From: an uncultured Actinomycetota bacterium
Lineage (GTDB): Bacteria > Actinomycetota > Actinomycetes > CAWDCV01
Assembly (NCBI GenBank): GCA_963801015.1
Contig: CAWDCV010000002.1
Coordinates: forward strand, 1,060,118 to 1,124,117
DNA: 64,000 nt
Reading direction: 5' to 3'
Position numbers and translations under genes: made by a program. Positions 2,352 to 46,587 of the stretch are shown piece after piece (positions within the stretch are counted from its first letter, which is position 1; each line of letters opens with the position of its first letter). Under the pieces are notes generated by a model. That model was given only the letters and a program-made list of their open reading frames with translations, was not told the origin of the DNA and searched no databases.

Positions 2352-3566
2352 TTGACAGGGAGCCCGGTGCCTCGTGCCGGTGTCACCACATCCGCCGGGC
2401 ACATCGTGCAGATGGTGCGTTCCGGCGAGGTGCGCACGCGCCGGGAAGTCCAGGAAGCGACCGGACTGTCCCGGTCGACGGTGTTCGTCCGGCTCGCCGA
2501 ACTCATGGCCGCGGGGTACCTGCGTGAGTCCGGCTCACGCCCCGGCGCTGCGGGCCGGCCATCCGGCATCCTGTCGTTCGACGAGAGCGACAAGCTGGTC
2601 CTCCTCGCCGACCTCGGCGCCACCCACAGCCGGCTCGCGCTCCAGGACGCCGGCGGCGAGGTGCTCGCCGAGTCGACCAAGGAGATGCTCATCGATTCCG
2701 GGCCTGAGCCGGTGCTGCACGCTGTGCGGGACGGGTTTCGAGCTCTGTTCCGTAAGAGTGGGCGGCCCCTGACGCAGCTGCAGGGCATCGGTGTGGGACT
2801 GCCCGGACCGGTCGACTTCGCGACCGGCCGCCCGAACCAGCCGCCACTCATGCCCGGCTGGCACGACTATCCGGTACCGCAGGCGCTCCAGCAGTGGTTC
2901 CACGTTCCTGTCATCGTCGACAACGACGCCAACCTCATGGGTCTCGGCGAGGCCCGCAGCCGCTTCCCGGACGTCCCGAGCCTGCTGTTCGTCAAGGTGG
3001 GTACGGGCATCGGGGCCGGGGTCATCCTGCACGGTCGCCCCGAGCGCGGCCTCGCCGGCGGCGCTGGGGACATCGGCCACATCCGCATCGCACATCCCGA
3101 CGGGCCGCGGCGCTGCGCCTGCGGTTCGGTCGGCTGCTTGGCCGCGCACGCCAGCGGCGGCGCCCTTGCACGTCAGCTCACCGAGCGCGGCGTACCCGCG
3201 GCATCGAGCAGGGACGTGGTGAACCTCGTCCATGCCGGGCACCCCGAAGCCATCGCCCTGGTGCGTACCGCCGGCCGGCTGCTCGGCGAGGTTCTCGCGA
3301 CGGCGGTGGCGCTGCTCAACCCCGGCGTGGTCGTCCTCAGCGGTGACATGGCCAACACGCACGAGCACTTCCTCGTCGGCGTACGGGAGGTGTTGTACGA
3401 GCGCACGCTGCCACTCGCGACCCGAGACCTCGTCATCACCACCAGCGCACTCGGCAGTCAGGCGGGCGTGGAGGGCGCCCGCCGGCTGGTGCTCGATTCC
3501 GTCTTCTCTGCCGAGGCGATCGACGATCGACTACGAGGAGCAGCAGCGGAGCGCCTGACATCCTGA
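2352..3566 (+). CDS. ROK family transcriptional regulator (NagC/XylR-type)
   Basis: N-terminal wHTH (VRTRREVQEATGLSRSTVFVRLAELMAAGYL), ROK sugar-kinase-like core (LGIGVGLPGPVD, DNDANLMGLGE) and the CxCGxxGC zinc motif (RRCACGSVGCL). Confidence 0.85.
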   Translation: MTGSPVPRAGVTTSAGHIVQMVRSGEVRTRREVQEATGLSRSTVFVRLAELMAAGYLRESGSRPGAAGRPSGILSFDESDKLVLLADLGATHSRLALQDAGGEVLAESTKEMLIDSGPEPVLHAVRDGFRALFRKSGRPLTQLQGIGVGLPGPVDFATGRPNQPPLMPGWHDYPVPQALQQWFHVPVIVDNDANLMGLGEARSRFPDVPSLLFVKVGTGIGAGVILHGRPERGLAGGAGDIGHIRIAHPDGPRRCACGSVGCLAAHASGGALARQLTERGVPAASSRDVVNLVHAGHPEAIALVRTAGRLLGEVLATAVALLNPGVVVLSGDMANTHEHFLVGVREVLYERTLPLATRDLVITTSALGSQAGVEGARRLVLDSVFSAEAIDDRLRGAAAERLTS

Positions 3567-16218: not shown

Positions 16219-16272
16219 CGTGGATCTTGAGACCTGACGTCACTGAAACGACAACGAGGCTCAAGATCCACG
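16219..16272. terminator. 13-bp perfect inverted repeat (cgtggatcttgag ... ctcaagatccacg, 28-nt loop); probable terminator of the minus-strand lipoprotein gene, upstream of tRNA-Arg
   Basis: Seen directly in sequence; it starts 17 nt after the lipoprotein stop (16289) on the minus strand. Confidence 0.5.
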
Positions 16273-39556: not shown

Positions 39557-39982
39557 TCAGGTCGTCCCGGTGTACTCGTGATCGGTGACGTGCTCGAGCC
39601 AGGTCACGACCCGGCCGTGGTCGTCGGCTTCCTGCATGGCGACGTGGGCCATGAACCGGTCGGGTGTGGCGCCGTGCCAGTGCTCCTCGTCGGGTTCGAT
39701 GTAGACGACGTCTCCGGGTCGGATCTCGACGATCTCGCCGCCTCGGTAGGAGACGAGCCCGATCCCGTCGGTGACGTACAGCGTCTGACCCTTGGGATGG
39801 GAGTGCCAGGCGGTGCGGGCGCCTGGGGTGAACCGGACGTGGGCGCAGCCGATGGCGGACTGGTCGTCGGGGTTCCGGATGGTGTCGATGTAGACGTCTC
39901 CGGTGAACCAGTCAGCCGGCCCTTCTCCGGTCTGTCCTCCGCTGTGCGTGATCTTCACGTGCGTCTCCTGGTGGGCTGGCAA
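39557..39982 (-). CDS. cupin domain-containing protein
   Basis: Cupin motifs (AWHSHPKGQTLYVTDG...PGDVVYIEPDEEHWHGA). Confidence 0.75.
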   Translation of the reverse strand: MPAHQETHVKITHSGGQTGEGPADWFTGDVYIDTIRNPDDQSAIGCAHVRFTPGARTAWHSHPKGQTLYVTDGIGLVSYRGGEIVEIRPGDVVYIEPDEEHWHGATPDRFMAHVAMQEADDHGRVVTWLEHVTDHEYTGTT

Positions 39983-40001: not shown

Positions 40002-40375
40002 TTACTGGGCGGTGTAGCCGCCGTCGACGGGGAGGGCGACGCCGATGACGAAGCCGGCCCCCGGACTGCTCAGCCACAGCACCGAGGCCGCGATCTCCTC
40101 AGACGTGCCGAGCCGGTTGATGGGCTGGTTCGCCTTGGCGACCTCAAGGTCAAGTTCGCCTTTGTCGATCATGTCAGTGACCATCGGGGTGGCGATGGTG
40201 CCGGGACAGATAGCGTTGATCAGGATTCCGCGGGGGGCGTACTCGAGGGCCGCGCTGCGGGTGAGGCCGATGACGCCGTGCGGGCGGCGGCCAGACCCAT
40301 GCCGGAGCTGGCGCCGGTCACCAGCGCGACCTGGCCGGAGAAGTCATACGTCGGGTTCATCATCGAGCCTCTCAG
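40002..40375 (-). pseudogene. SDR family oxidoreductase remnant with internal deletion (~120 codons missing, frame broken)
   Basis: N-terminus MMNPTYDFSGQVALVTGASSGMGLAAAR (Rossmann TGxxxGxG) is joined directly, in a different frame, to the C-terminal ...HGVIGLTRSAALEYAPRGILINAICPGTIATPMVTDMIDKG...GRLGTSEEIAASVLWLSSPGAGFVIGVALPVDGGYTAQ*. The catalytic middle region is absent. Confidence 0.75.
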
Positions 40376-41403
40376 CTGGGTGCGGGTGAGGGTTGGAGGA
40401 GGACCTTGATGGCCTGACGCTGGTCCATGGCGGTGTAGGCGTCGGCGGCCTGGTCCAGCGGCAGGGTGAGGTCGAAGACCCGGCCGGGGTTGATCGTGCG
40501 GTTCCAGATCCGGTCGATCAGGTCGGGTAGGAACCGGCGGATTGGGGCGGGGCCGCCGTGGACGTGGACGTGGGTCATGAAGATGTCGTCGCCGGCGATG
40601 GCGACGTCATGGAGGACGCCGACGAAGCCGAGGTGCCCGCCGGGGCGGGTGGCGCCGATGGCCTGCATCATCGACTCCTGCGTTCCGACGGCCTCGACGA
40701 CCGAGTGTGCGCCGAGTCCGTCGGTGAGCTCCTTGACCTTGGCGATCCCGGCTTCGCCGCGTTCCTCGACGATGTCGGTGGCGCCGAACTCCCGCGCGAG
40801 GGCCTGCCGGTCGGCGTGCCGGGACATGGCGATGATGCGCTCGGCGCCGAGCTCCTTGGCGGCCAGGACGGCGAGCAGCCCGACGGCCCCGTCACCGACC
40901 ACGGCGACGGTCTTGCCCGGTCCGGCCTCGGCCGCCACGGCCCCGAACCAGCCGGTGCCCAGCACATCGGAGGCGGCCAGCAGGCTGGGAATCAGGTCCG
41001 CATCCGGCTGGCCCGGGGTGGCGACGAGCGTGCCGTCGGCCAACGGCACCCGCATCAGCTGCGCCTGCGACGGACCCGGGAAGTCGCGGTGGACGCAGTT
41101 GGTCTGATAGCCGGCCTGGCAGATCTCGCAGGTGTTGTCGGAGGCGAAGAACGACCCGACCACGAAGTCGCCGACCTTGACCTGCTCGACCTGGTCGCCG
41201 ACCTGCTCGACGACACCGACGTACTCATGCCCCATCGGTTTCGGCTCGTTGACGGCGTCGGCGCCGCGGTAGGGCCACAGGTCCGATCCGCAGACACACG
41301 CCGCGGCGAGCCGGATGATCGCATCCGTCGGCTGCTGGATCGTCGGCTCGGGCAGGTCCTCGACCCGGACATCACCGGGGGCATGCATCACAACACCACG
41401 CAT
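40372..41403 (-). CDS. zinc-dependent alcohol dehydrogenase family protein (MDR superfamily; formaldehyde/threonine dehydrogenase-like)
   Basis: GHEYVGVV zinc site, structural-zinc Cys cluster (CEICQAGYQTNC), VVGDGAVG NAD-binding motif. Confidence 0.8.
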   Translation of the reverse strand: MRGVVMHAPGDVRVEDLPEPTIQQPTDAIIRLAAACVCGSDLWPYRGADAVNEPKPMGHEYVGVVEQVGDQVEQVKVGDFVVGSFFASDNTCEICQAGYQTNCVHRDFPGPSQAQLMRVPLADGTLVATPGQPDADLIPSLLAASDVLGTGWFGAVAAEAGPGKTVAVVGDGAVGLLAVLAAKELGAERIIAMSRHADRQALAREFGATDIVEERGEAGIAKVKELTDGLGAHSVVEAVGTQESMMQAIGATRPGGHLGFVGVLHDVAIAGDDIFMTHVHVHGGPAPIRRFLPDLIDRIWNRTINPGRVFDLTLPLDQAADAYTAMDQRQAIKVLLQPSPAPS

Positions 41404-41475
41404 CAGCGGGCCAACTCCTTGAAAGATCGGATTTGTGCGGGAACTGACCCCCAGTCAACCCCCGCCGACGACGAT

Positions 41476-41517
41476 GTGGGATGCCCTGTCGTGGGGTGTA
41501 CCACCAGGGCATCCCAC
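41476..41517. promoter_or_regulatory. 13-bp perfect palindrome arms (gtgggatgccctg N16 cagggcatcccac) in the divergent promoter region between the ADH gene and the MmyB-like regulator; candidate operator
   Basis: Seen directly; 33 nt upstream of the regulator start codon. Confidence 0.4.
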
Positions 41518-41549
41518 GTTCACGGCCCGGCGTCGTAGCGTCGTATGTC

Positions 41550-42431
41550 GTGGACAACCGTGACGAGGTCCGCGAGTTCCTCATCTCGCGGCGAGCCAAG
41601 ATCACCCCGGCTGAAGCCGGCCTGCCGACCCACGGCGCTCGGCGGGTACCCGGGCTGCGCCGGGCCGAGGTTGCGGCGCTGGCCGGGGTCAGCGTCGAGT
41701 ATTACGCCAAGCTCGAACGCGGCACGATCGCCGGTGCCTCCGCGTCCGTGCTCGACGCGATCGCCCGCGCCCTCCGGCTCGACGACGCTGAACGCGCCCA
41801 CCTGTTCCATCTCGCCCACGCCGCCGACGGCACCATCGCCAGCATGCGGCCCCGCCGAACCCCGAAACGCTGGCAACCCCGGCCGAGCCTGCAATGGGTG
41901 CTCGATGACTTCACCGCCCCGGCGATCGTCCGCAACGGCCGGATGGACCTGCTCGCCGCCAACCACCTCGGCCGAGCCATGCACGCCACCGTCTACGAGG
42001 CGACGGGCGACCCGGTGCCGAACTTCGTCCGGTTCACCTTCCTGCACCTCGACGACGCCGACGACTTCTACTCCGACTGGGACCTCGCCGCCGACACCAG
42101 CGTCGCCATCCTGCACACCGAAGCCGGCCGCGACCCGCACGACAAAGATCTGCACGACCTCGTCGGCGAGCTGTCCACCCGCAGCGACGACTTCCGGCGC
42201 CGCTGGAGCAGCCGCAACGTCCGCAGCCACGGCGCCGGCACCAAACAGTTCCACCACCGCGACGTCGGCGACCTCGAGCTCGCCTACGAGAGCCTGGACA
42301 TGATCGCCGATCCCGGACTCACCCTCACCCTCTACGCCGCCGAACCAGGCTCGCCCACCGCCAGCGCCCTCGCCCTGCTGGCTTCCTGGTCCAGCCCCAC
42401 CGTCACACCGTCACCGACCGCCACCTTGTGA
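41550..42431 (+). CDS. MmyB-like helix-turn-helix transcriptional regulator
   Basis: VDNRDEVREFLISRRAKITPAEAGLP...RRVPGLRRAEVAALAGVSVEYYAKLERG (XRE HTH) plus the MmyB-like ligand-binding C-terminal domain (AIVRNGRMDLLAANHLGRA...). Confidence 0.8.
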   Translation: MDNRDEVREFLISRRAKITPAEAGLPTHGARRVPGLRRAEVAALAGVSVEYYAKLERGTIAGASASVLDAIARALRLDDAERAHLFHLAHAADGTIASMRPRRTPKRWQPRPSLQWVLDDFTAPAIVRNGRMDLLAANHLGRAMHATVYEATGDPVPNFVRFTFLHLDDADDFYSDWDLAADTSVAILHTEAGRDPHDKDLHDLVGELSTRSDDFRRRWSSRNVRSHGAGTKQFHHRDVGDLELAYESLDMIADPGLTLTLYAAEPGSPTASALALLASWSSPTVTPSPTATL

Positions 42432-42569
42432 GATCCGCGCCGCGGGCTGGGTGTACCAGCGGTACGTGCCAGGCCAGGGTGTTCCTCACCACATGGGACG
42501 CTCCTGGCGTCGACGACGTGTGCTTCAGCACCCAGGCGAGCGCGATGGCCGCCATGGAGGGCTGTGTAC

Positions 42570-43340
42570 CTCAGGCTTGCGAGGTGGGCATGGCCCACAG
42601 CTCGGCCACCGACGAGCGGCGGGGTCGGGTGACCATGTAGGTGATGCCATCGGCGATATCCTCGGGCTGCAGCGGTTCGGGATGTTCTCGGCGTCGGAGG
42701 CGGCGAGGTTGTCACGGATCTGCTGGTTGTTGTGGGAGACAAGCTCGGTAGCCACGGCGCCGGGCTCGAGGACGCCGACGCGTACGTGCTTCTTCGTGAC
42801 CTCTTGACGGAGGGCCTCGGTGAAGCCGTTTACGCCGAACTTCGTCATGTTGTAGACGCCGAAGTTCGCCCAGGCCTGGCGGCCGGCGATCGAGGAGATG
42901 TTCACGATGTCGGCGACTCCGCGCGGCCCGTCCTGTGCTGCGGTCAGCAGGTGCGGGAGGGCGGCGTGGGTGACGTAGAGCAGGCCTTTCTGGTTGATCG
43001 CGATCATCCGTTCCCATTCCTCGATGTCGGCGCTGGCTACAGGGCCCAGCAGCATTAGTCCGGCGTTGTTGATGAGGATGTCGAGCCGGCCGAAACGGTC
43101 CACGACGGTTTGTACGGCCTGCTCGGCCTGGGCCCGGTCGGTGATGTCCGCCTCGACGGCCAACACCGTCGCGCCGGTCGCCTCGATCTCGGACACGAGG
43201 GTGTCCAGCCGGTCTTTGCGGCGAGCGAGGACGGCGACGCTCGCGCCGTGCTCGGCGAGCCGGCGAGCGGTCGCCTCCCCGATGCCGCTGCTGGCCCCGG
43301 TCACGATCGCGACCGTCCCGGTCAGCGTGGTGATGTTCAT
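42570..43340 (-). pseudogene. SDR family oxidoreductase with apparent frameshift near 42679 (C-terminal ~35 aa in the adjacent frame)
   Basis: MNITTLTGTVAIVTGASSGIGEA..., YxxxK active site (YNMTKFG); the expected C-terminus EPLQPEDIADGITYMVTRPRRSSVAELWAMPTSQA* is read in the -1 frame after a ccc/ggg run where one more base is expected. Confidence 0.75.
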
Positions 43341-44182
43341 GAGGCGTCGTAAGCCAGCGAGGCCGACAGGTCGCGGTGGGCGTCGATCTGGCCCTGGATC
43401 GTTGCCAGGTTCTGCTCGACCCCGGTCATCACATCGGCGCCGGCGAGGAAGCGCAGTGGCAGGTCGCCGGAGTCGGACAGGGTGACGAGTGCGGAGGCGA
43501 GCTTGCTCGGGTCGCCGCCCTGCTGGCCGTTCATTCCTTTCCACGCCGTGATGGTCTGTGCGGTGCGCTCGGCGTAGTCCGCGATGTCCAGCTCGGGCCA
43601 GATCGTCGACGACCCCTCGACCAGCAGTTCGGTGCGGAAGAAGCCGGGCTCGACCGCCATCGTCGTGATGCCGTACGGGGCGACGTCGTAGCGCAGCGAC
43701 TCCATCCAGCCCTCGAGGGCGAACTTCGACGGGGCGTACGCGGCGCAGAACTCCTGCCCCATCAGCCCGGCGGCCGAGGTCACCGTGATCACCTGCCCGG
43801 AACGCTGTGCACGCATGATCGGCAGGACCGCCCGGGTGACGTTGAGCGGACCGAAGAAGTTGGTCTCCATCTGCGCCCGCAGCTGCTCGGGGCTGATGTT
43901 CTCGAAGTAGCCGGCGTAGAAGTTGCCTGCGTTGTTCACCAGGACGTCGATACGTCCGAAACGCTCGACCGCCGCCTGGACGGCCGCGTCGATCGTGGCC
44001 GGGTTGGTGACGTCCAGGGCGACGGCGAACAGCTCCTCATGCTCACCGACCGCAGCCCGCACCTTGTCGGCATCACGGCCGGTCGCGACCACGGCGTGGC
44101 CGCCGGCCAGCGCGGCCCGCACGATGTCGACGCCCAGGCCACGGCTGGAGCCGGTGACGAACCAGACCTTCTTCTCACTCAT
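43337..44182 (-). CDS. SDR family oxidoreductase
   Basis: MSEKKVWFVTGSSRGLG..., NNAG motif, YAPSKFA catalytic Tyr/Lys; the stop overlaps the start of the downstream SDR by 4 nt. Confidence 0.8.
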   Translation of the reverse strand: MSEKKVWFVTGSSRGLGVDIVRAALAGGHAVVATGRDADKVRAAVGEHEELFAVALDVTNPATIDAAVQAAVERFGRIDVLVNNAGNFYAGYFENISPEQLRAQMETNFFGPLNVTRAVLPIMRAQRSGQVITVTSAAGLMGQEFCAAYAPSKFALEGWMESLRYDVAPYGITTMAVEPGFFRTELLVEGSSTIWPELDIADYAERTAQTITAWKGMNGQQGGDPSKLASALVTLSDSGDLPLRFLAGADVMTGVEQNLATIQGQIDAHRDLSASLAYDAS

Positions 44183-44344
44183 AGGTTGTCCTTCAGCTGG
44201 TGAAGGTCGGTGTCTGGATGACGCCCGACCCCGACCGGTGGGTGCTTTCAGTGAATCCGCTCGCATCACGTCGAGGGAGACCCGCGTTATAGGGGTACTC
44301 CTGGTGACCCCTTCGGCTCGGACTGCCGCCGTAGGCTCCCGGAC

Positions 44345-45250
44345 ATGGACGTCCGGCAGGACCTGCGCGAGTTCCTCACCACGAGGCGTGCCCGGCTCGC
44401 TCCGCAGGACGTGGGGCTGCCCGACTTCGGCGGACGTCGCCGCGTCCCCGGCCTGCGACGCGAGGAGGTCGCGCTGGTGGCCGGAGTGAGCGTCGAGTAC
44501 TACGTCCGCCTCGAACGCGGCAACGCCACCGGGATCTCAGAATCCGTGCTCGACGGCGTCGCCCGAGCCCTCCAGCTCGACGACGCCGAACGCGCCCACC
44601 TGTACGGACTCGTCCGGGCCGCGAACGACGGCGCCCACCCCAGCAAGCGTCGCACCCGTCCCCGATCCCAACCGGTCCGTCCCGGCGTGCAGCAGCTGCT
44701 CGACGCCATCGAGAACGTGCCCGCGATCGTGCAGAACGGACGCCTGGACGTCCTCGCGGCCAACCGGCTCGGACGGACCCTATTCTCCGAGCTCCACGAA
44801 CACGCGCCGGCCAACTTCGCCCGCTACGTCTTTCTCGACCCGCGCGCCCAGATCTTCTACCGCAGTTGGCCCGACGCCGCCCAGCAGACCGCCGCCATCC
44901 TCCGCACCGAAGCCGGACGGGTGCCGCACGACCGCGCGCTTAGCGACCTCGTCGGCGAACTCGCCACCCGCAGCGAGGACTTCCGGGCCCTCTGGGCCTC
45001 CCACGACGTCCGCGACCACCGCACCGGCAGGAAGTCGATCACCCACCCAGTCGTCGGCGACCTCGACCTCGACTACGAGCTGATGGACCTGACCACCGAC
45101 CGCGGACTCACCCTCATCACCTACACCGCAGCGCCTGGCTCCGCGTCGCACGATGGACTCCGACTCCTCAGCAGCTGGACCATGCCCGATCACGCGACCA
45201 GAAGGGACCAGACGACGCCCGTCGACGGGAGCCGACTCGAGAGCCAATGA
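44345..45250 (+). CDS. MmyB-like helix-turn-helix transcriptional regulator (paralog)
   Basis: MDVRQDLREFLTTRRARLAPQDVGLPDFGGRRRVPGLRREEVALVAGVSVEYYVRLERG; about 45% identical by eye to the regulator at 41550. Confidence 0.8.
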   Translation: MDVRQDLREFLTTRRARLAPQDVGLPDFGGRRRVPGLRREEVALVAGVSVEYYVRLERGNATGISESVLDGVARALQLDDAERAHLYGLVRAANDGAHPSKRRTRPRSQPVRPGVQQLLDAIENVPAIVQNGRLDVLAANRLGRTLFSELHEHAPANFARYVFLDPRAQIFYRSWPDAAQQTAAILRTEAGRVPHDRALSDLVGELATRSEDFRALWASHDVRDHRTGRKSITHPVVGDLDLDYELMDLTTDRGLTLITYTAAPGSASHDGLRLLSSWTMPDHATRRDQTTPVDGSRLESQ

Positions 45251-45660
45251 CTATGGCCCTGGTCGACTGCAGGCGAACGTTGCCGTACGGAATCTGGCGG
45301 ACGGGTTTTGCGCCCACCGCAACAGAGGCGTCGCTTACACGGAAGAGCCTGTTCGAACAGCTGCCGGAGGCCACCTTGGCTGCGGTCGTGATCGCAGCCG
45401 TCATCGAGCTCGTCGACATCCCCGCCCTGGTGCGGCTGTACCGAGTCTGGACCGGCAACCTCGGCGGCATCTACGGCTGGGCTGCCCGGGCGGACGTCCT
45501 CTCAGCGCTGGCCGCGATGCTCGGCGTGCTGGTCTTCGACACCCTCCCCGGCCTGTTCATCGGCATCGGCGTCTCACTGCTCCTGCTGCTCTACCGGGCT
45601 TCCCGACCCACGTTGCCCGCCTCGTCCGCGGTGGGGAGCCCGGTATCTGGGTCGACCTCC
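45247..45660 (+). pseudogene. SulP-family anion transporter fragment (internal TM region only)
   Basis: ...LPEATLAAVVIAAVIELVDIPALVRLYRVWT...VLSALAAMLGVLVFDTLPGLFIGIGVSLLLLLYRASRP matches the distal TM helices of SulP permeases. There is no N-terminal core and no STAS domain; the downstream continuation of the ORF is antisense to the LLM gene. Confidence 0.4.
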
Positions 45661-45678
45661 AGCCCAGCCCGCCGCCGA

Positions 45679-46587
45679 TCAGCCGCGGCGCAGCTGGCTC
45701 AGCAGCGGGAGCTGGCGGAGCGGTTCGTCGTCGGTGTTCCAGTAGATGTGCTCGATACCCAGTCGCGCGGCCCGGTCGAGGTCGGCGGCAACCTGGTCGG
45801 GCGACCCGAGCAGCGGTCCGCGCTCGTCCAGTGGCTCAGCGGTGACGTTGCCGTTCACCTGAAGCATGACCGGCAGCGTGTCGGGATCGTGACCGGCGTC
45901 CCTGGCCGCGGCACGGAAGGTCTCGACGCTGGCCTCGACCGCGTCCCAGTCGAAGATCACCAGGGTGAGTCCGACACCGAGACGCCCGACGCGCTCGAGC
46001 GCCGCCGGTGAACCGGCGCCCAACACCAGGCGTGGGCCATCACGGTGGACCGGCTTCGGTCCGATATCAGCTTCGGGGATGCGGTAGAAGCGGCCCTCGA
46101 AGCGCACCGGATCAGGGCCCCAGATCGCTCGCATGGCCGACAGATGCTCCTCGAAGCCTGCGCCGCGCCGCCGCATCGAGACGCCGGCGGCCTCGAACTC
46201 CTGCTCCATCCAGCCCTGACCGATACCGGCGATGAGTCGACCGTCGCTCAACCGGTCCAGCGTGGCGAGCCGACGAGCAAGGATGACCGGGCTCTGAAAC
46301 AGCGCGTCAAGCACGCTGGTGCCCACGGTGATGCGGTGGGTCCGAGCCGCGACGTAGCTGAGCGTCTCGATCGGGTCGTACACGGTCCCGAAGTCCTCGG
46401 GCGCCTCCATCACCGGCCCGCCCTCGCCCCCCATGGCGATCGGGACGGTCGGCCGCATGAGACGCTCCCAGGACCACACCGAGTCCAACCCGATCCGTTC
46501 GGCCTCCTCCGCGACCTGCGCGATGGCTTCCGGTGAGGCACCGCGCCCCGCCACCGGAAGGTGCACGCCCAGCTTGATCGACGACAT
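45679..46587 (-). CDS. LLM class F420-dependent oxidoreductase (luciferase-like monooxygenase family)
   Basis: GAGGAGG RBS then ATG 46587; MSSIKLGVHLPVAG... TIM-barrel LLM signature. Confidence 0.8.
   Translation of the reverse strand: MSSIKLGVHLPVAGRGASPEAIAQVAEEAERIGLDSVWSWERLMRPTVPIAMGGEGGPVMEAPEDFGTVYDPIETLSYVAARTHRITVGTSVLDALFQSPVILARRLATLDRLSDGRLIAGIGQGWMEQEFEAAGVSMRRRGAGFEEHLSAMRAIWGPDPVRFEGRFYRIPEADIGPKPVHRDGPRLVLGAGSPAALERVGRLGVGLTLVIFDWDAVEASVETFRAAARDAGHDPDTLPVMLQVNGNVTAEPLDERGPLLGSPDQVAADLDRAARLGIEHIYWNTDDEPLRQLPLLSQLRRG

Follow-up and report, generated by a model that had tools for sequence, protein, structure and literature searches.

When a perfect inverted repeat stands just ahead of a regulator gene, is it the site that the regulator binds? 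This question is raised by a 64,000-nucleotide stretch of DNA from an uncultured Actinomycetota bacterium (contig CAWDCV010000002.1; hereafter designated the window), in which two 13-bp arms, GTGGGATGCCCTG (positions 41476–41488) and CAGGGCATCCCAC (41505–41517), are perfectly complementary across a 16-nt gap, the repeat ending 32 nt ahead of the GTG start codon of a gene for an MmyB-like regulator (Reg1). It lies inside the 146-bp intergenic region between Reg1 and a divergently transcribed gene for a zinc-type medium-chain dehydrogenase (ADH), and a second MmyB-like regulator gene (Reg2) is located beyond two short-chain dehydrogenase/reductase genes (SDR1 and SDR2) on the opposite strand. 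The original prediction, made from the sequence of this locus, took the repeat to be a defined operator and the two regulators bracketing the SDR genes to be a duplicated, mirror-image redox module. Comparison with orthologous loci suggests another explanation, in which the locus comprises two ordinary regulator/target pairs, Reg1 would bind a different dyad that overlaps the repeat, the perfection of the repeat is specific to one lineage, and Reg2 was brought in by a recent gene replacement. We put the probability of this explanation as a whole at about 0.6.

The repeat itself is present as originally described. The window has two perfect inverted repeats with arms of 13 bp or more and a loop of up to 30 nt, as against 0.17 expected per random 64 kb, so that one falling within a 146-bp intergenic region is not due to chance; the other (CGTGGATCTTGAG/CTCAAGATCCACG, 16219–16231 and 16260–16272) has a 28-nt gap. 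When up to three mismatches were allowed, the half-site matched the window 31 times (27.5 expected), not above chance, and none of the matches stood upstream of Reg2 or the SDR operon, where the original prediction had proposed to look for it.

One scan of species-representative genomes yielded 80 loci with Reg1 orthologues of 66–85% identity (loci are designated by numbers preceded by L), originating from Kribbella, Microlunatus, Micromonospora, Dactylosporangium, Actinoplanes, Nonomuraea, Mycolicibacterium, Streptomyces, and many uncultured Actinomycetota. Their upstream regions were aligned by anchoring on the best dyad, and 79 of the 80 have a site. In these 79 orthologues, the two arms (parts of the conserved blocks A and C described below) are complementary at a mean of 6.8 of the 13 positions (2.9–4.7 in slid controls) and at 10 at the most. 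Moreover, the central pairs −11/+18 and −10/+17 are kept as mismatches in 92% and 82% of the orthologues, respectively, with G facing A in 62 and T facing C in 53 of the 79, which indicates selection on the sequence GAGTC and not on pairing. The perfect repeat is confined to the window and L094, an ENA metagenome contig that is the closest match to the window (98% identity in Reg1); it is absent from the 79 orthologue loci and from three relatives with 87–88% identity, L095 (Microlunatus ginsengisoli), L096, and L097, all of which keep the canonical GGGAGTC in block A. As judged from this comparison, the 13-bp perfect repeat itself is not the operator: the lack of conservation upstream of orthologous regulators, which the original prediction had named as speaking against its proposal, is what the alignment displays.

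What is conserved at this place is a fixed layout, shared by the 79 loci, of block A, block B, 5 variable bases, block C, about 18 variable bases, the hexamer TANNNT, and the start codon. Block A (GTGGGATGCCCTGTCGT, 41476–41492, plus strand; orthologue consensus GGGAGTCnCTGtCGA) is the left arm of the repeat followed by TCGT. Block B (GGGGTGTAC, 41493–41501, plus strand; consensus nGGGTGTAC) falls within the supposed loop and contains six positions, GTGTAC, that are conserved in 75–79 of the 79 orthologues. Block C (CAGGGCATCCCAC, 41505–41517, plus strand) is the right arm and has the consensus A-G-[GT]-[GA]-C-A-[TC]-C-C-C-A, with the final A less fixed. Blocks B and C constitute the left and right halves of a dyad, GGTGTAC-N5-G[GT][GA]CA[TC]CC, which is the candidate operator in the 79 loci; its distance from the start codon is fixed, mostly at −54 to −57, in 79 of 80 loci. 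B–C complementarity, computed on an alignment of 37 sequences, amounts to 75.9%, whereas it is 25–55% when the pairing is slid. The dyad is near perfect in Micromonosporaceae and Streptomyces (GGGTGTACTG-c-CAGTACAYCC) and less symmetric in the relatives of the window (GGTGTAC-N5-GGGCATCC). With a position-weight matrix of the B–C site, the site in the window (41493–41516) scores 33.3, which is also the median value for the sites in orthologues. An operator-like region is hence conserved where one had been predicted, but as a different, overlapping dyad with its GTGTAC in the former loop.

The proteins are of the expected kind. As originally predicted, Reg1 (41550–42431; GTG start) and Reg2 (44345–45250; ATG start) are MmyB-like regulators encoded on the plus strand and 55% identical to each other; each combines an N-terminal XRE-type helix-turn-helix (HTH) domain (HTH_31 and HTH_3, both above the cut-off) with a C-terminal MLTR_LBD domain (PF17765; E = 5e-50 and 4.5e-57, respectively, over the full profile). 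The GTG at 41550 as the start of Reg1 is backed by the N-terminus MDNR.EVREFL, kept in the 80 orthologues. There is a weak match in sequence to MltR (3pxp), the sole relative with a solved structure. In the MltR dimer, the recognition helices are 34 Å apart, spanning about 10 bp (PMC3406030), and this spacing fits GTAC-N5-GTAC and misfits arms with centres 29 bp apart. Binding of a dimer to a palindromic target, as in the MmyB-like family, would thus find a conserved dyad at the expected place, and Reg1 most likely binds as a dimer to GGGGTGTAC-CACCA-GGGCATCCC (41493–41515).

As a separate observation on Reg1, its recognition helix (VSVEYYAKLERG) is near-invariant among the orthologues, with rare conservative substitutions, and residue 30 (41637–41639), which precedes the conserved RRVPGLRR loop, is in most cases A or N where block C has GGGCAT and Q or R where it has GTACAT (80 orthologues; mutual information, 0.64 bits). 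Residue 30 may be a specificity determinant; shared ancestry confounds the correlation, and we do not use it as evidence.

Where would the dyad stand relative to the promoters? In all orthologues of Reg1 and Reg2, a TANNNT hexamer lies 6–8 nt before the start codon. In the window it is TAGCGT (41536–41541, plus strand), 8 nt ahead of the GTG and presumably the −10 hexamer of Reg1; it belongs to the sequence cGTCGTA[CG]CGTCGa, which is conserved 7–8 nt ahead of the start codon in Reg1 orthologues. A TANNNT just before the start codon is the signature of leaderless transcripts in actinobacteria, and we infer that the mRNAs of Reg1 and Reg2 are leaderless, the start codon of Reg1 probably also being its transcription start (predicted at 41548–41550). 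With a leaderless mRNA, the centre of the B–C dyad would fall at about −44 to −46 of the regulator promoter (in the window, some 46 bp ahead of the start), with block C lying over the −35 position, at which no TTGACA-like hexamer is found. An E. coli-type promoter and terminator scan of 41350–44420 gave no matches and is uninformative for actinobacterial promoters.

On the opposite side, the dyad would be about 58 bp upstream of the presumed start of the ADH-(SDR)-cupin operon, near 41446 on the minus strand. The −10 region of this promoter is likely represented by block D (CCAGTCAACC, 41451–41460; TTGACT on the minus strand), whose consensus in orthologues is tCCAGnnAACC or tCCAG[n]CAACC, at −43 to −33 relative to block B. 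Block D is exactly 17 nt from the GGGAG of block A in Reg1-type and Reg2-type families alike, and in L011 and L082 the target start codon is located 6 nt past it. Its target-strand sequence, TTGnCT, is −10-like but unusual in having no A at position 2. SigH/SigE-type and SigF/SigB-type consensus sequences showed no convincing fit to blocks D and A. Block A (GGGAGTCnCTG), which resembles an inverted copy of the right half-site, would then lie in the −35 region of the ADH promoter. In this arrangement Reg1 would control both divergent promoters, with a small hydrophobic ligand in its PAS-like domain as the signal; such a ligand for Reg1 and Reg2 is suggested by domain homology with MltR (fatty acid) and MmyB (furans). 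Activation is favoured over repression, because MmyB is an activator and the −35 position has no TTGACA-like hexamer.

Further sites bear on the roles of the individual blocks. Scanning the 80 loci with the matrix revealed 32 additional B–C sites (e.g., L034 +967, L055 +2601, L070 +995, L072 +3098, and L074 −1782), which stand before ADH, cupin, SDR, or cyclophilin-like genes in cases where such a gene does not diverge from the regulator, some of them near further MmyB-like paralogues. Each of these sites has block A on the side facing the target gene, with a −10 hexamer after it. Thus, in L025, L028, L001, and L037, a second site immediately past the 3′ end of the regulator gene is followed by the A-like CAGGGTGTTCC, then TCCTAGCGT, six bases, and the ATG of a gene for a cyclophilin-like (PF18050-type) protein, a layout that places block A in the −35 region of the target promoter with the −10 element downstream. 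The canonical TAGCGT of the second-site promoters is about 15 nt past block A, as compared with 19 nt for the block D hexamer of the window. Block C is retained even where its side has no promoter, which argues that its role is that of a binding half-site and goes beyond that of a promoter element. The 32 extra dyads suggest a small multi-promoter regulon, possibly with cross-talk between MmyB-like paralogues.

How, then, may the repeat have become perfect? Relative to L096 and the consensus, block A of the window (GGGATGCCC in place of the canonical GGGAGTCTC) carries three changes within 4 nt (GTCT to TGCC), all toward complementarity with block C. These clustered substitutions in the window lineage would have made block A exactly complementary to block C, giving rise to the perfect repeat. 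Because the three changes are confined to 4 nt and all run in this one direction, the simplest explanation is a single template switch, or ‘quasipalindrome correction’. Mutations of this type have been described in E. coli and phage T4, where likewise a cluster of base changes turns an imperfect inverted repeat into a perfect one, the difference being that the event in the window is seen through lineage comparison alone.

Several points weigh against a Reg1 dimer on the B–C dyad with block A as a promoter element. The B and C arms in the window are symmetric at 6 of 9 positions only, while arms A and C match at 13 of 13; block A tracks block C across lineages; the presumed −10 hexamer of ADH, TTGACT, lacks the usual A at position 2; kinship among the genomes inflates the conservation of the blocks upstream of Reg1; and, as origins of the perfect repeat, three independent substitutions or selection are not distinguishable from a template switch. 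It could be asked whether the perfect repeat, with A and C as arms and 16 nt as spacer, does serve as the operator for one regulator dimer, being statistically unexpected, rightly placed, and made of two conserved blocks, whose complementarity among orthologues (62.8%, versus 36–48% when slid) includes one compensatory pair (A:T in 13 sequences, C:G in 9). We consider this very unlikely, since the arm centres are 29 bp apart as opposed to the approximately 10-bp span of the MltR dimer, no orthologue among the 79 exceeds 10 of 13 complementary positions, two pairs are maintained as mismatches, the most conserved bases of the region are in the ‘spacer’, and neither Reg2 nor the SDR operon has the half-site upstream. 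A reading that deserves more attention, although we still judge it unlikely, is that the regulator occupies A, B, and C, as two dimers or a tetramer, to exert symmetric control over the back-to-back promoters; the perfected A arm in the window lineage would then raise occupancy on the ADH side. A GGGrkkyMC-like sequence is common to A, B, and the reverse complement of C, A accompanies B–C even at second sites without a regulator-side promoter, and A and C take mirror positions, about −32 to −42 and −35 to −43 from the presumed starts. The co-variation of A with C also means that block A may be contacted by the regulator, and not act only as a promoter element. However, A and B are direct repeats, ill-suited to a dimer of two-fold symmetry, and the 5′ part of block A (GGGAGTC) is common to paralogue families with differing B–C dyads, as would be expected of a general promoter element rather than a specificity site.

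Two other explanations were weighed. Folding of the single-stranded DNA (−19.8 kcal/mol; z-score, −4.3) is what could recommend a nucleic-acid structure, be it a leader RNA hairpin, a terminator or attenuator, or a DNA cruciform, but we find this scarcely credible: no T-tract or terminator-like site is present at the inverted repeat, Rfam and tRNA scans of the region returned no match, the repeat is upstream of both presumed transcription starts and would hence be untranscribed, the pairing is not kept in orthologues, with the two central pairs conserved as mismatches, and a 16-nt loop disfavours cruciform extrusion. There is also little to be said for the idea that the conserved blocks are bound by something else, for example a global regulator or an alternative sigma factor, with Reg1 binding elsewhere or nowhere. 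It is true that blocks D and A, being common to paralogue families, could be read by RNA polymerase; yet the dyad is specific to the Reg1 orthologue group, moves with Reg1 and its targets across genera, and differs at Reg2-type loci, and N5-spaced palindromes are usual for dimeric HTH proteins but not for sigma factors. The binding of a Reg1 dimer to the B–C dyad is therefore the reading that we prefer.

The Reg2 side shows the same layout with different sequences. Ahead of Reg2, block D (CAGTGAATCC, 44249–44258) has the 17-nt spacing to GGGAG seen in the Reg1 family, the A-like block (GGGAGACCCGCGTTAT, 44275–44290, plus strand) begins with GGGAGAC at 44275, and directly after it comes a dyad, AGGGGT-N10-ACCCCT (44291–44312, plus strand), followed by TAGGCT (44332–44337, plus strand), presumably the −10 hexamer, 7 nt ahead of the ATG at 44345. 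The predicted transcription starts are 44345 for Reg2 and about 44243 on the minus strand for SDR2. In Reg2 orthologues, TANNNT is found 6–7 nt ahead of the start codon in all cases. Reg2-type loci (L081–L086, L008b, and L053b) likewise share the layout of Reg1 loci and differ in their dyads; the half-sites of the window recur in the orthologue L081 as GGGGTAC-N5-GTGACCCC, and L082–L086 have an analogous layout. Since the Reg1 matrix gives a score of only 1.2 on the Reg2 site, Reg1 and Reg2 probably have distinct operators, and the half-site of the repeat, which the original prediction proposed to look for upstream of Reg2 as well, is not found there, Reg2 having a different dyad of its own.

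Do the two regulators and the SDR genes form one module? The gene pairings in the orthologue loci argue otherwise. In about half of the 80 loci, an ADH orthologue (62–82% identity) is directly divergent from the Reg1 orthologue, with an SDR and a cupin gene often next, whereas the conserved partner of Reg2 in L081, L082, and L085 is SDR2 (72–79% identity); SDR1 is not conserved there. On this comparative evidence, the locus is composed of two independent regulator/target pairs, in one of which Reg1 goes with ADH-SDR-cupin and in the other Reg2 with SDR2, and the regulators are old paralogues belonging to different orthologous groups, not products of a local duplication. Nor is the arrangement a mirror image, both regulators being on the plus strand. 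SDR2-type genes associate with Reg1-type regulators in other arrangements as well, as seen from a 57%-identical SDR2 homologue directly downstream of, and co-directional with, the Reg1 orthologue in L012 (4899–5741).

The junction between the two pairs records how they came to adjoin. Synteny between the window and L094 stops at 42446 and resumes at 45214–45258 (L094, 7493–7537), such that the last 11 or so codons of Reg2 come from sequence shared with L094, and both L094 and L096 have a Cyclophil_like2 gene after Reg1 in place of SDR1-SDR2-Reg2. Just past the Reg1 stop codon, the window contains a relic operator and promoter (42447–42521, plus strand), composed of TGGGTGTACCAGCGGTACGTGCCA, CAGGGTGTTCC, TGGCGT, and GTG in this order; its matrix score is 18.3, as compared with a shuffle maximum of 16.1. 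This segment aligns with the operator/promoter of the cyclophilin-like gene in L025, L028, L001, and L037, with the −10 hexamer changed to TGGCGT, ATG to GTG, and the gene missing. A possible assignment of the site at 42448 to the edge of an inserted segment was dropped in view of the homologous second operators 3′ of Reg1 orthologues; by the same comparison, the site is a relic promoter, and the breakpoint of replacement is nearer 42520. The synteny break and the relic promoter together indicate that a segment of about 2.7 kb carrying SDR1-SDR2-Reg2 (about 42520–45213, as compared with 6898–7492 in L094) replaced a cyclophilin-like target gene of Reg1. If so, the ‘bracketing’ of the SDR genes by two regulators, on which the proposal of a single module was founded, is an accident of gene replacement, and Reg2 with SDR2-SDR1, having the same layout as Reg1 and its own dyad, would adjoin Reg1 for this reason.

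The genes of the two pairs bear further marks of decay. In the Reg1 pair, ADH (40372–41403, minus strand), the presumed divergent target of Reg1, has ADH_N (GroES-like) and ADH_zinc_N domains above the cut-off. Its best NCBIfam match is mycothiol-dependent formaldehyde dehydrogenase (TIGR03451), and the score of 119.7 bits is so far below the cut-off of 512.9 that ADH is not counted as a member of this equivalog family but is a homologue of it. Within the ADH operon follows an SDR pseudogene (40002–40360, minus strand), which lacks 407 bp present in L094 (4325–4731); the synteny blocks meet at 40280/40281 of the window, and this internal deletion takes out the middle of the protein, which is an intact 255-residue SDR at the corresponding position in L094, L095, and L096. 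The operon ends with a cupin gene (39557–39982, minus strand; Cupin_2, E = 3.7e-13), orthologues of which come after ADH in many Reg1 loci and in L094. In L096 (about 2550–3000), the relative with 88% identity, no ADH gene was called between the SDR and regulator genes and the coding sequence for the ADH N-terminus is still visible; ADH is probably truncated there.

As for the SDR operon, SDR2 (43337–44182, minus strand; adh_short, E = 2e-50), the conserved divergent partner of Reg2, and SDR1 (42571–43340, minus strand; adh_short, E = 7e-60) are 32% identical, and the stop codon of SDR2 overlaps the start codon of SDR1 as ATGA (43337–43340), as had been noted originally. The cofactor and catalytic motifs of SDRs (TGxxxGxG and YxxxK) are found in the translations as VTGSSRGLG/YAPSK and VTGASSGIG/YNMTK. 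The C-terminal frameshift reported for one of the two was confirmed in SDR1: its C-terminus, PEPLQPEDIADGITYMVTRPRRSSVAELWAMPTSQA*, sits in a different frame, and full length requires a 1-nt repair, whereby one base added to the GGG run at 42679–42681 yields a protein of 256 residues ending at 42571 and matching SDR profiles over their whole length. The GGG run being a homopolymer, the frameshift could be a sequencing error. Beyond Reg2, an open reading frame (45247–45699) matches weakly, below the cut-off, to the C-terminal end only of the sulfate permease family (PF00916, E = 2.9e-4), and is probably a gene fragment, a further sign of decay and rearrangement in this stretch.

How much of this is new? 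MmyB-like regulators with divergent SDR or medium-chain dehydrogenase/reductase (MDR) genes and an expected palindromic target have been described already, as has a widely conserved pair of the SCO4944/SCO4945 type (Xu et al. 2012, PMC3406030). In the window, Reg1 is divergent from ADH, an MDR, and Reg2 from SDR2, each pairing being conserved in orthologue loci; the link of such regulators with SDR genes drawn in the original prediction holds to the extent that both adjoin oxidoreductase genes, in line with the known family association, and fails for a single redox module. Like SCO4944/SCO4945 of Streptomyces coelicolor, the Reg1 pair joins an MmyB-like regulator gene to a divergent gene for an MDR, itself a homologue and not an orthologue of mycothiol-dependent formaldehyde dehydrogenase, and Reg1 orthologues occur in the Streptomyces loci L058, L067, and L070; Reg1/ADH fits the description of that pair, the likeness to SCO4944 being by description only, in a paper that gives no operator. 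MmyB itself differs in controlling an antibiotic cluster through ‘B-boxes’, and for Reg1 it is comparison of loci that defines a dyad with a block on either side. Another autoregulated XRE-family regulator that acts on divergent promoters is MsrR of Corynebacterium glutamicum (PMC7532634); it is, however, a repressor sensing oxidation through a cysteine, a ligand and a sign of regulation being only proposed for Reg1, and neither MsrR nor AotM was informative as a guide to the MmyB-like family. Among open-access papers and preprints we found no operator for SDR/MDR-linked MmyB-like regulators; a description elsewhere is possible. An XRE-family MmyB-like regulator with a dyad operator in a divergent promoter, for which the B–C dyad is a candidate, is thus of a known kind, and what would be new is the comparative definition of the operator/promoter geometry for the most widespread MmyB-like subgroup.

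For the window, the message is that a conspicuous palindrome would not be the functional unit and that the apparent module would be a juxtaposition by gene replacement, in a stretch where, besides this replacement, one SDR gene has suffered a deletion, another carries a frameshift, and a promoter is dead. In a wider perspective, the oxidoreductase-linked MmyB-like regulators of Actinomycetota might tentatively be supposed, at odds somewhat below even, to share one design, in which one bound regulator drives both back-to-back promoters from a family-specific dyad, namely GGTGTAC-N5-G[GT][GA]CA[TC]CC in the widespread Reg1/SCO4944-like group. Toward the target gene, this dyad would be accompanied by a block resembling a half-site, placed in the −35 region, and by a −10 element, and toward the other side by a leaderless regulator gene. 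If true, this design would supply the first operator consensus for a poorly studied family, would predict a small regulon of ADH-SDR-cupin and a cyclophilin-like lipoprotein, and would make the perfect repeat of the window a natural case of quasipalindrome correction inside such a site. In actinomycetes, where one genome can encode up to dozens of paralogues, the MmyB-like family is a large one, and its use as a marker for antibiotic-related and redox genes has been proposed. A conserved dyad of fixed geometry offers a concrete DNA probe and predicts transcription starts and a short list of targets (ADH, SDR, cupin, and cyclophilin-like genes), whereby the questions of binding, ligand, and regulon become directly testable for the most widely conserved subgroup of this family.

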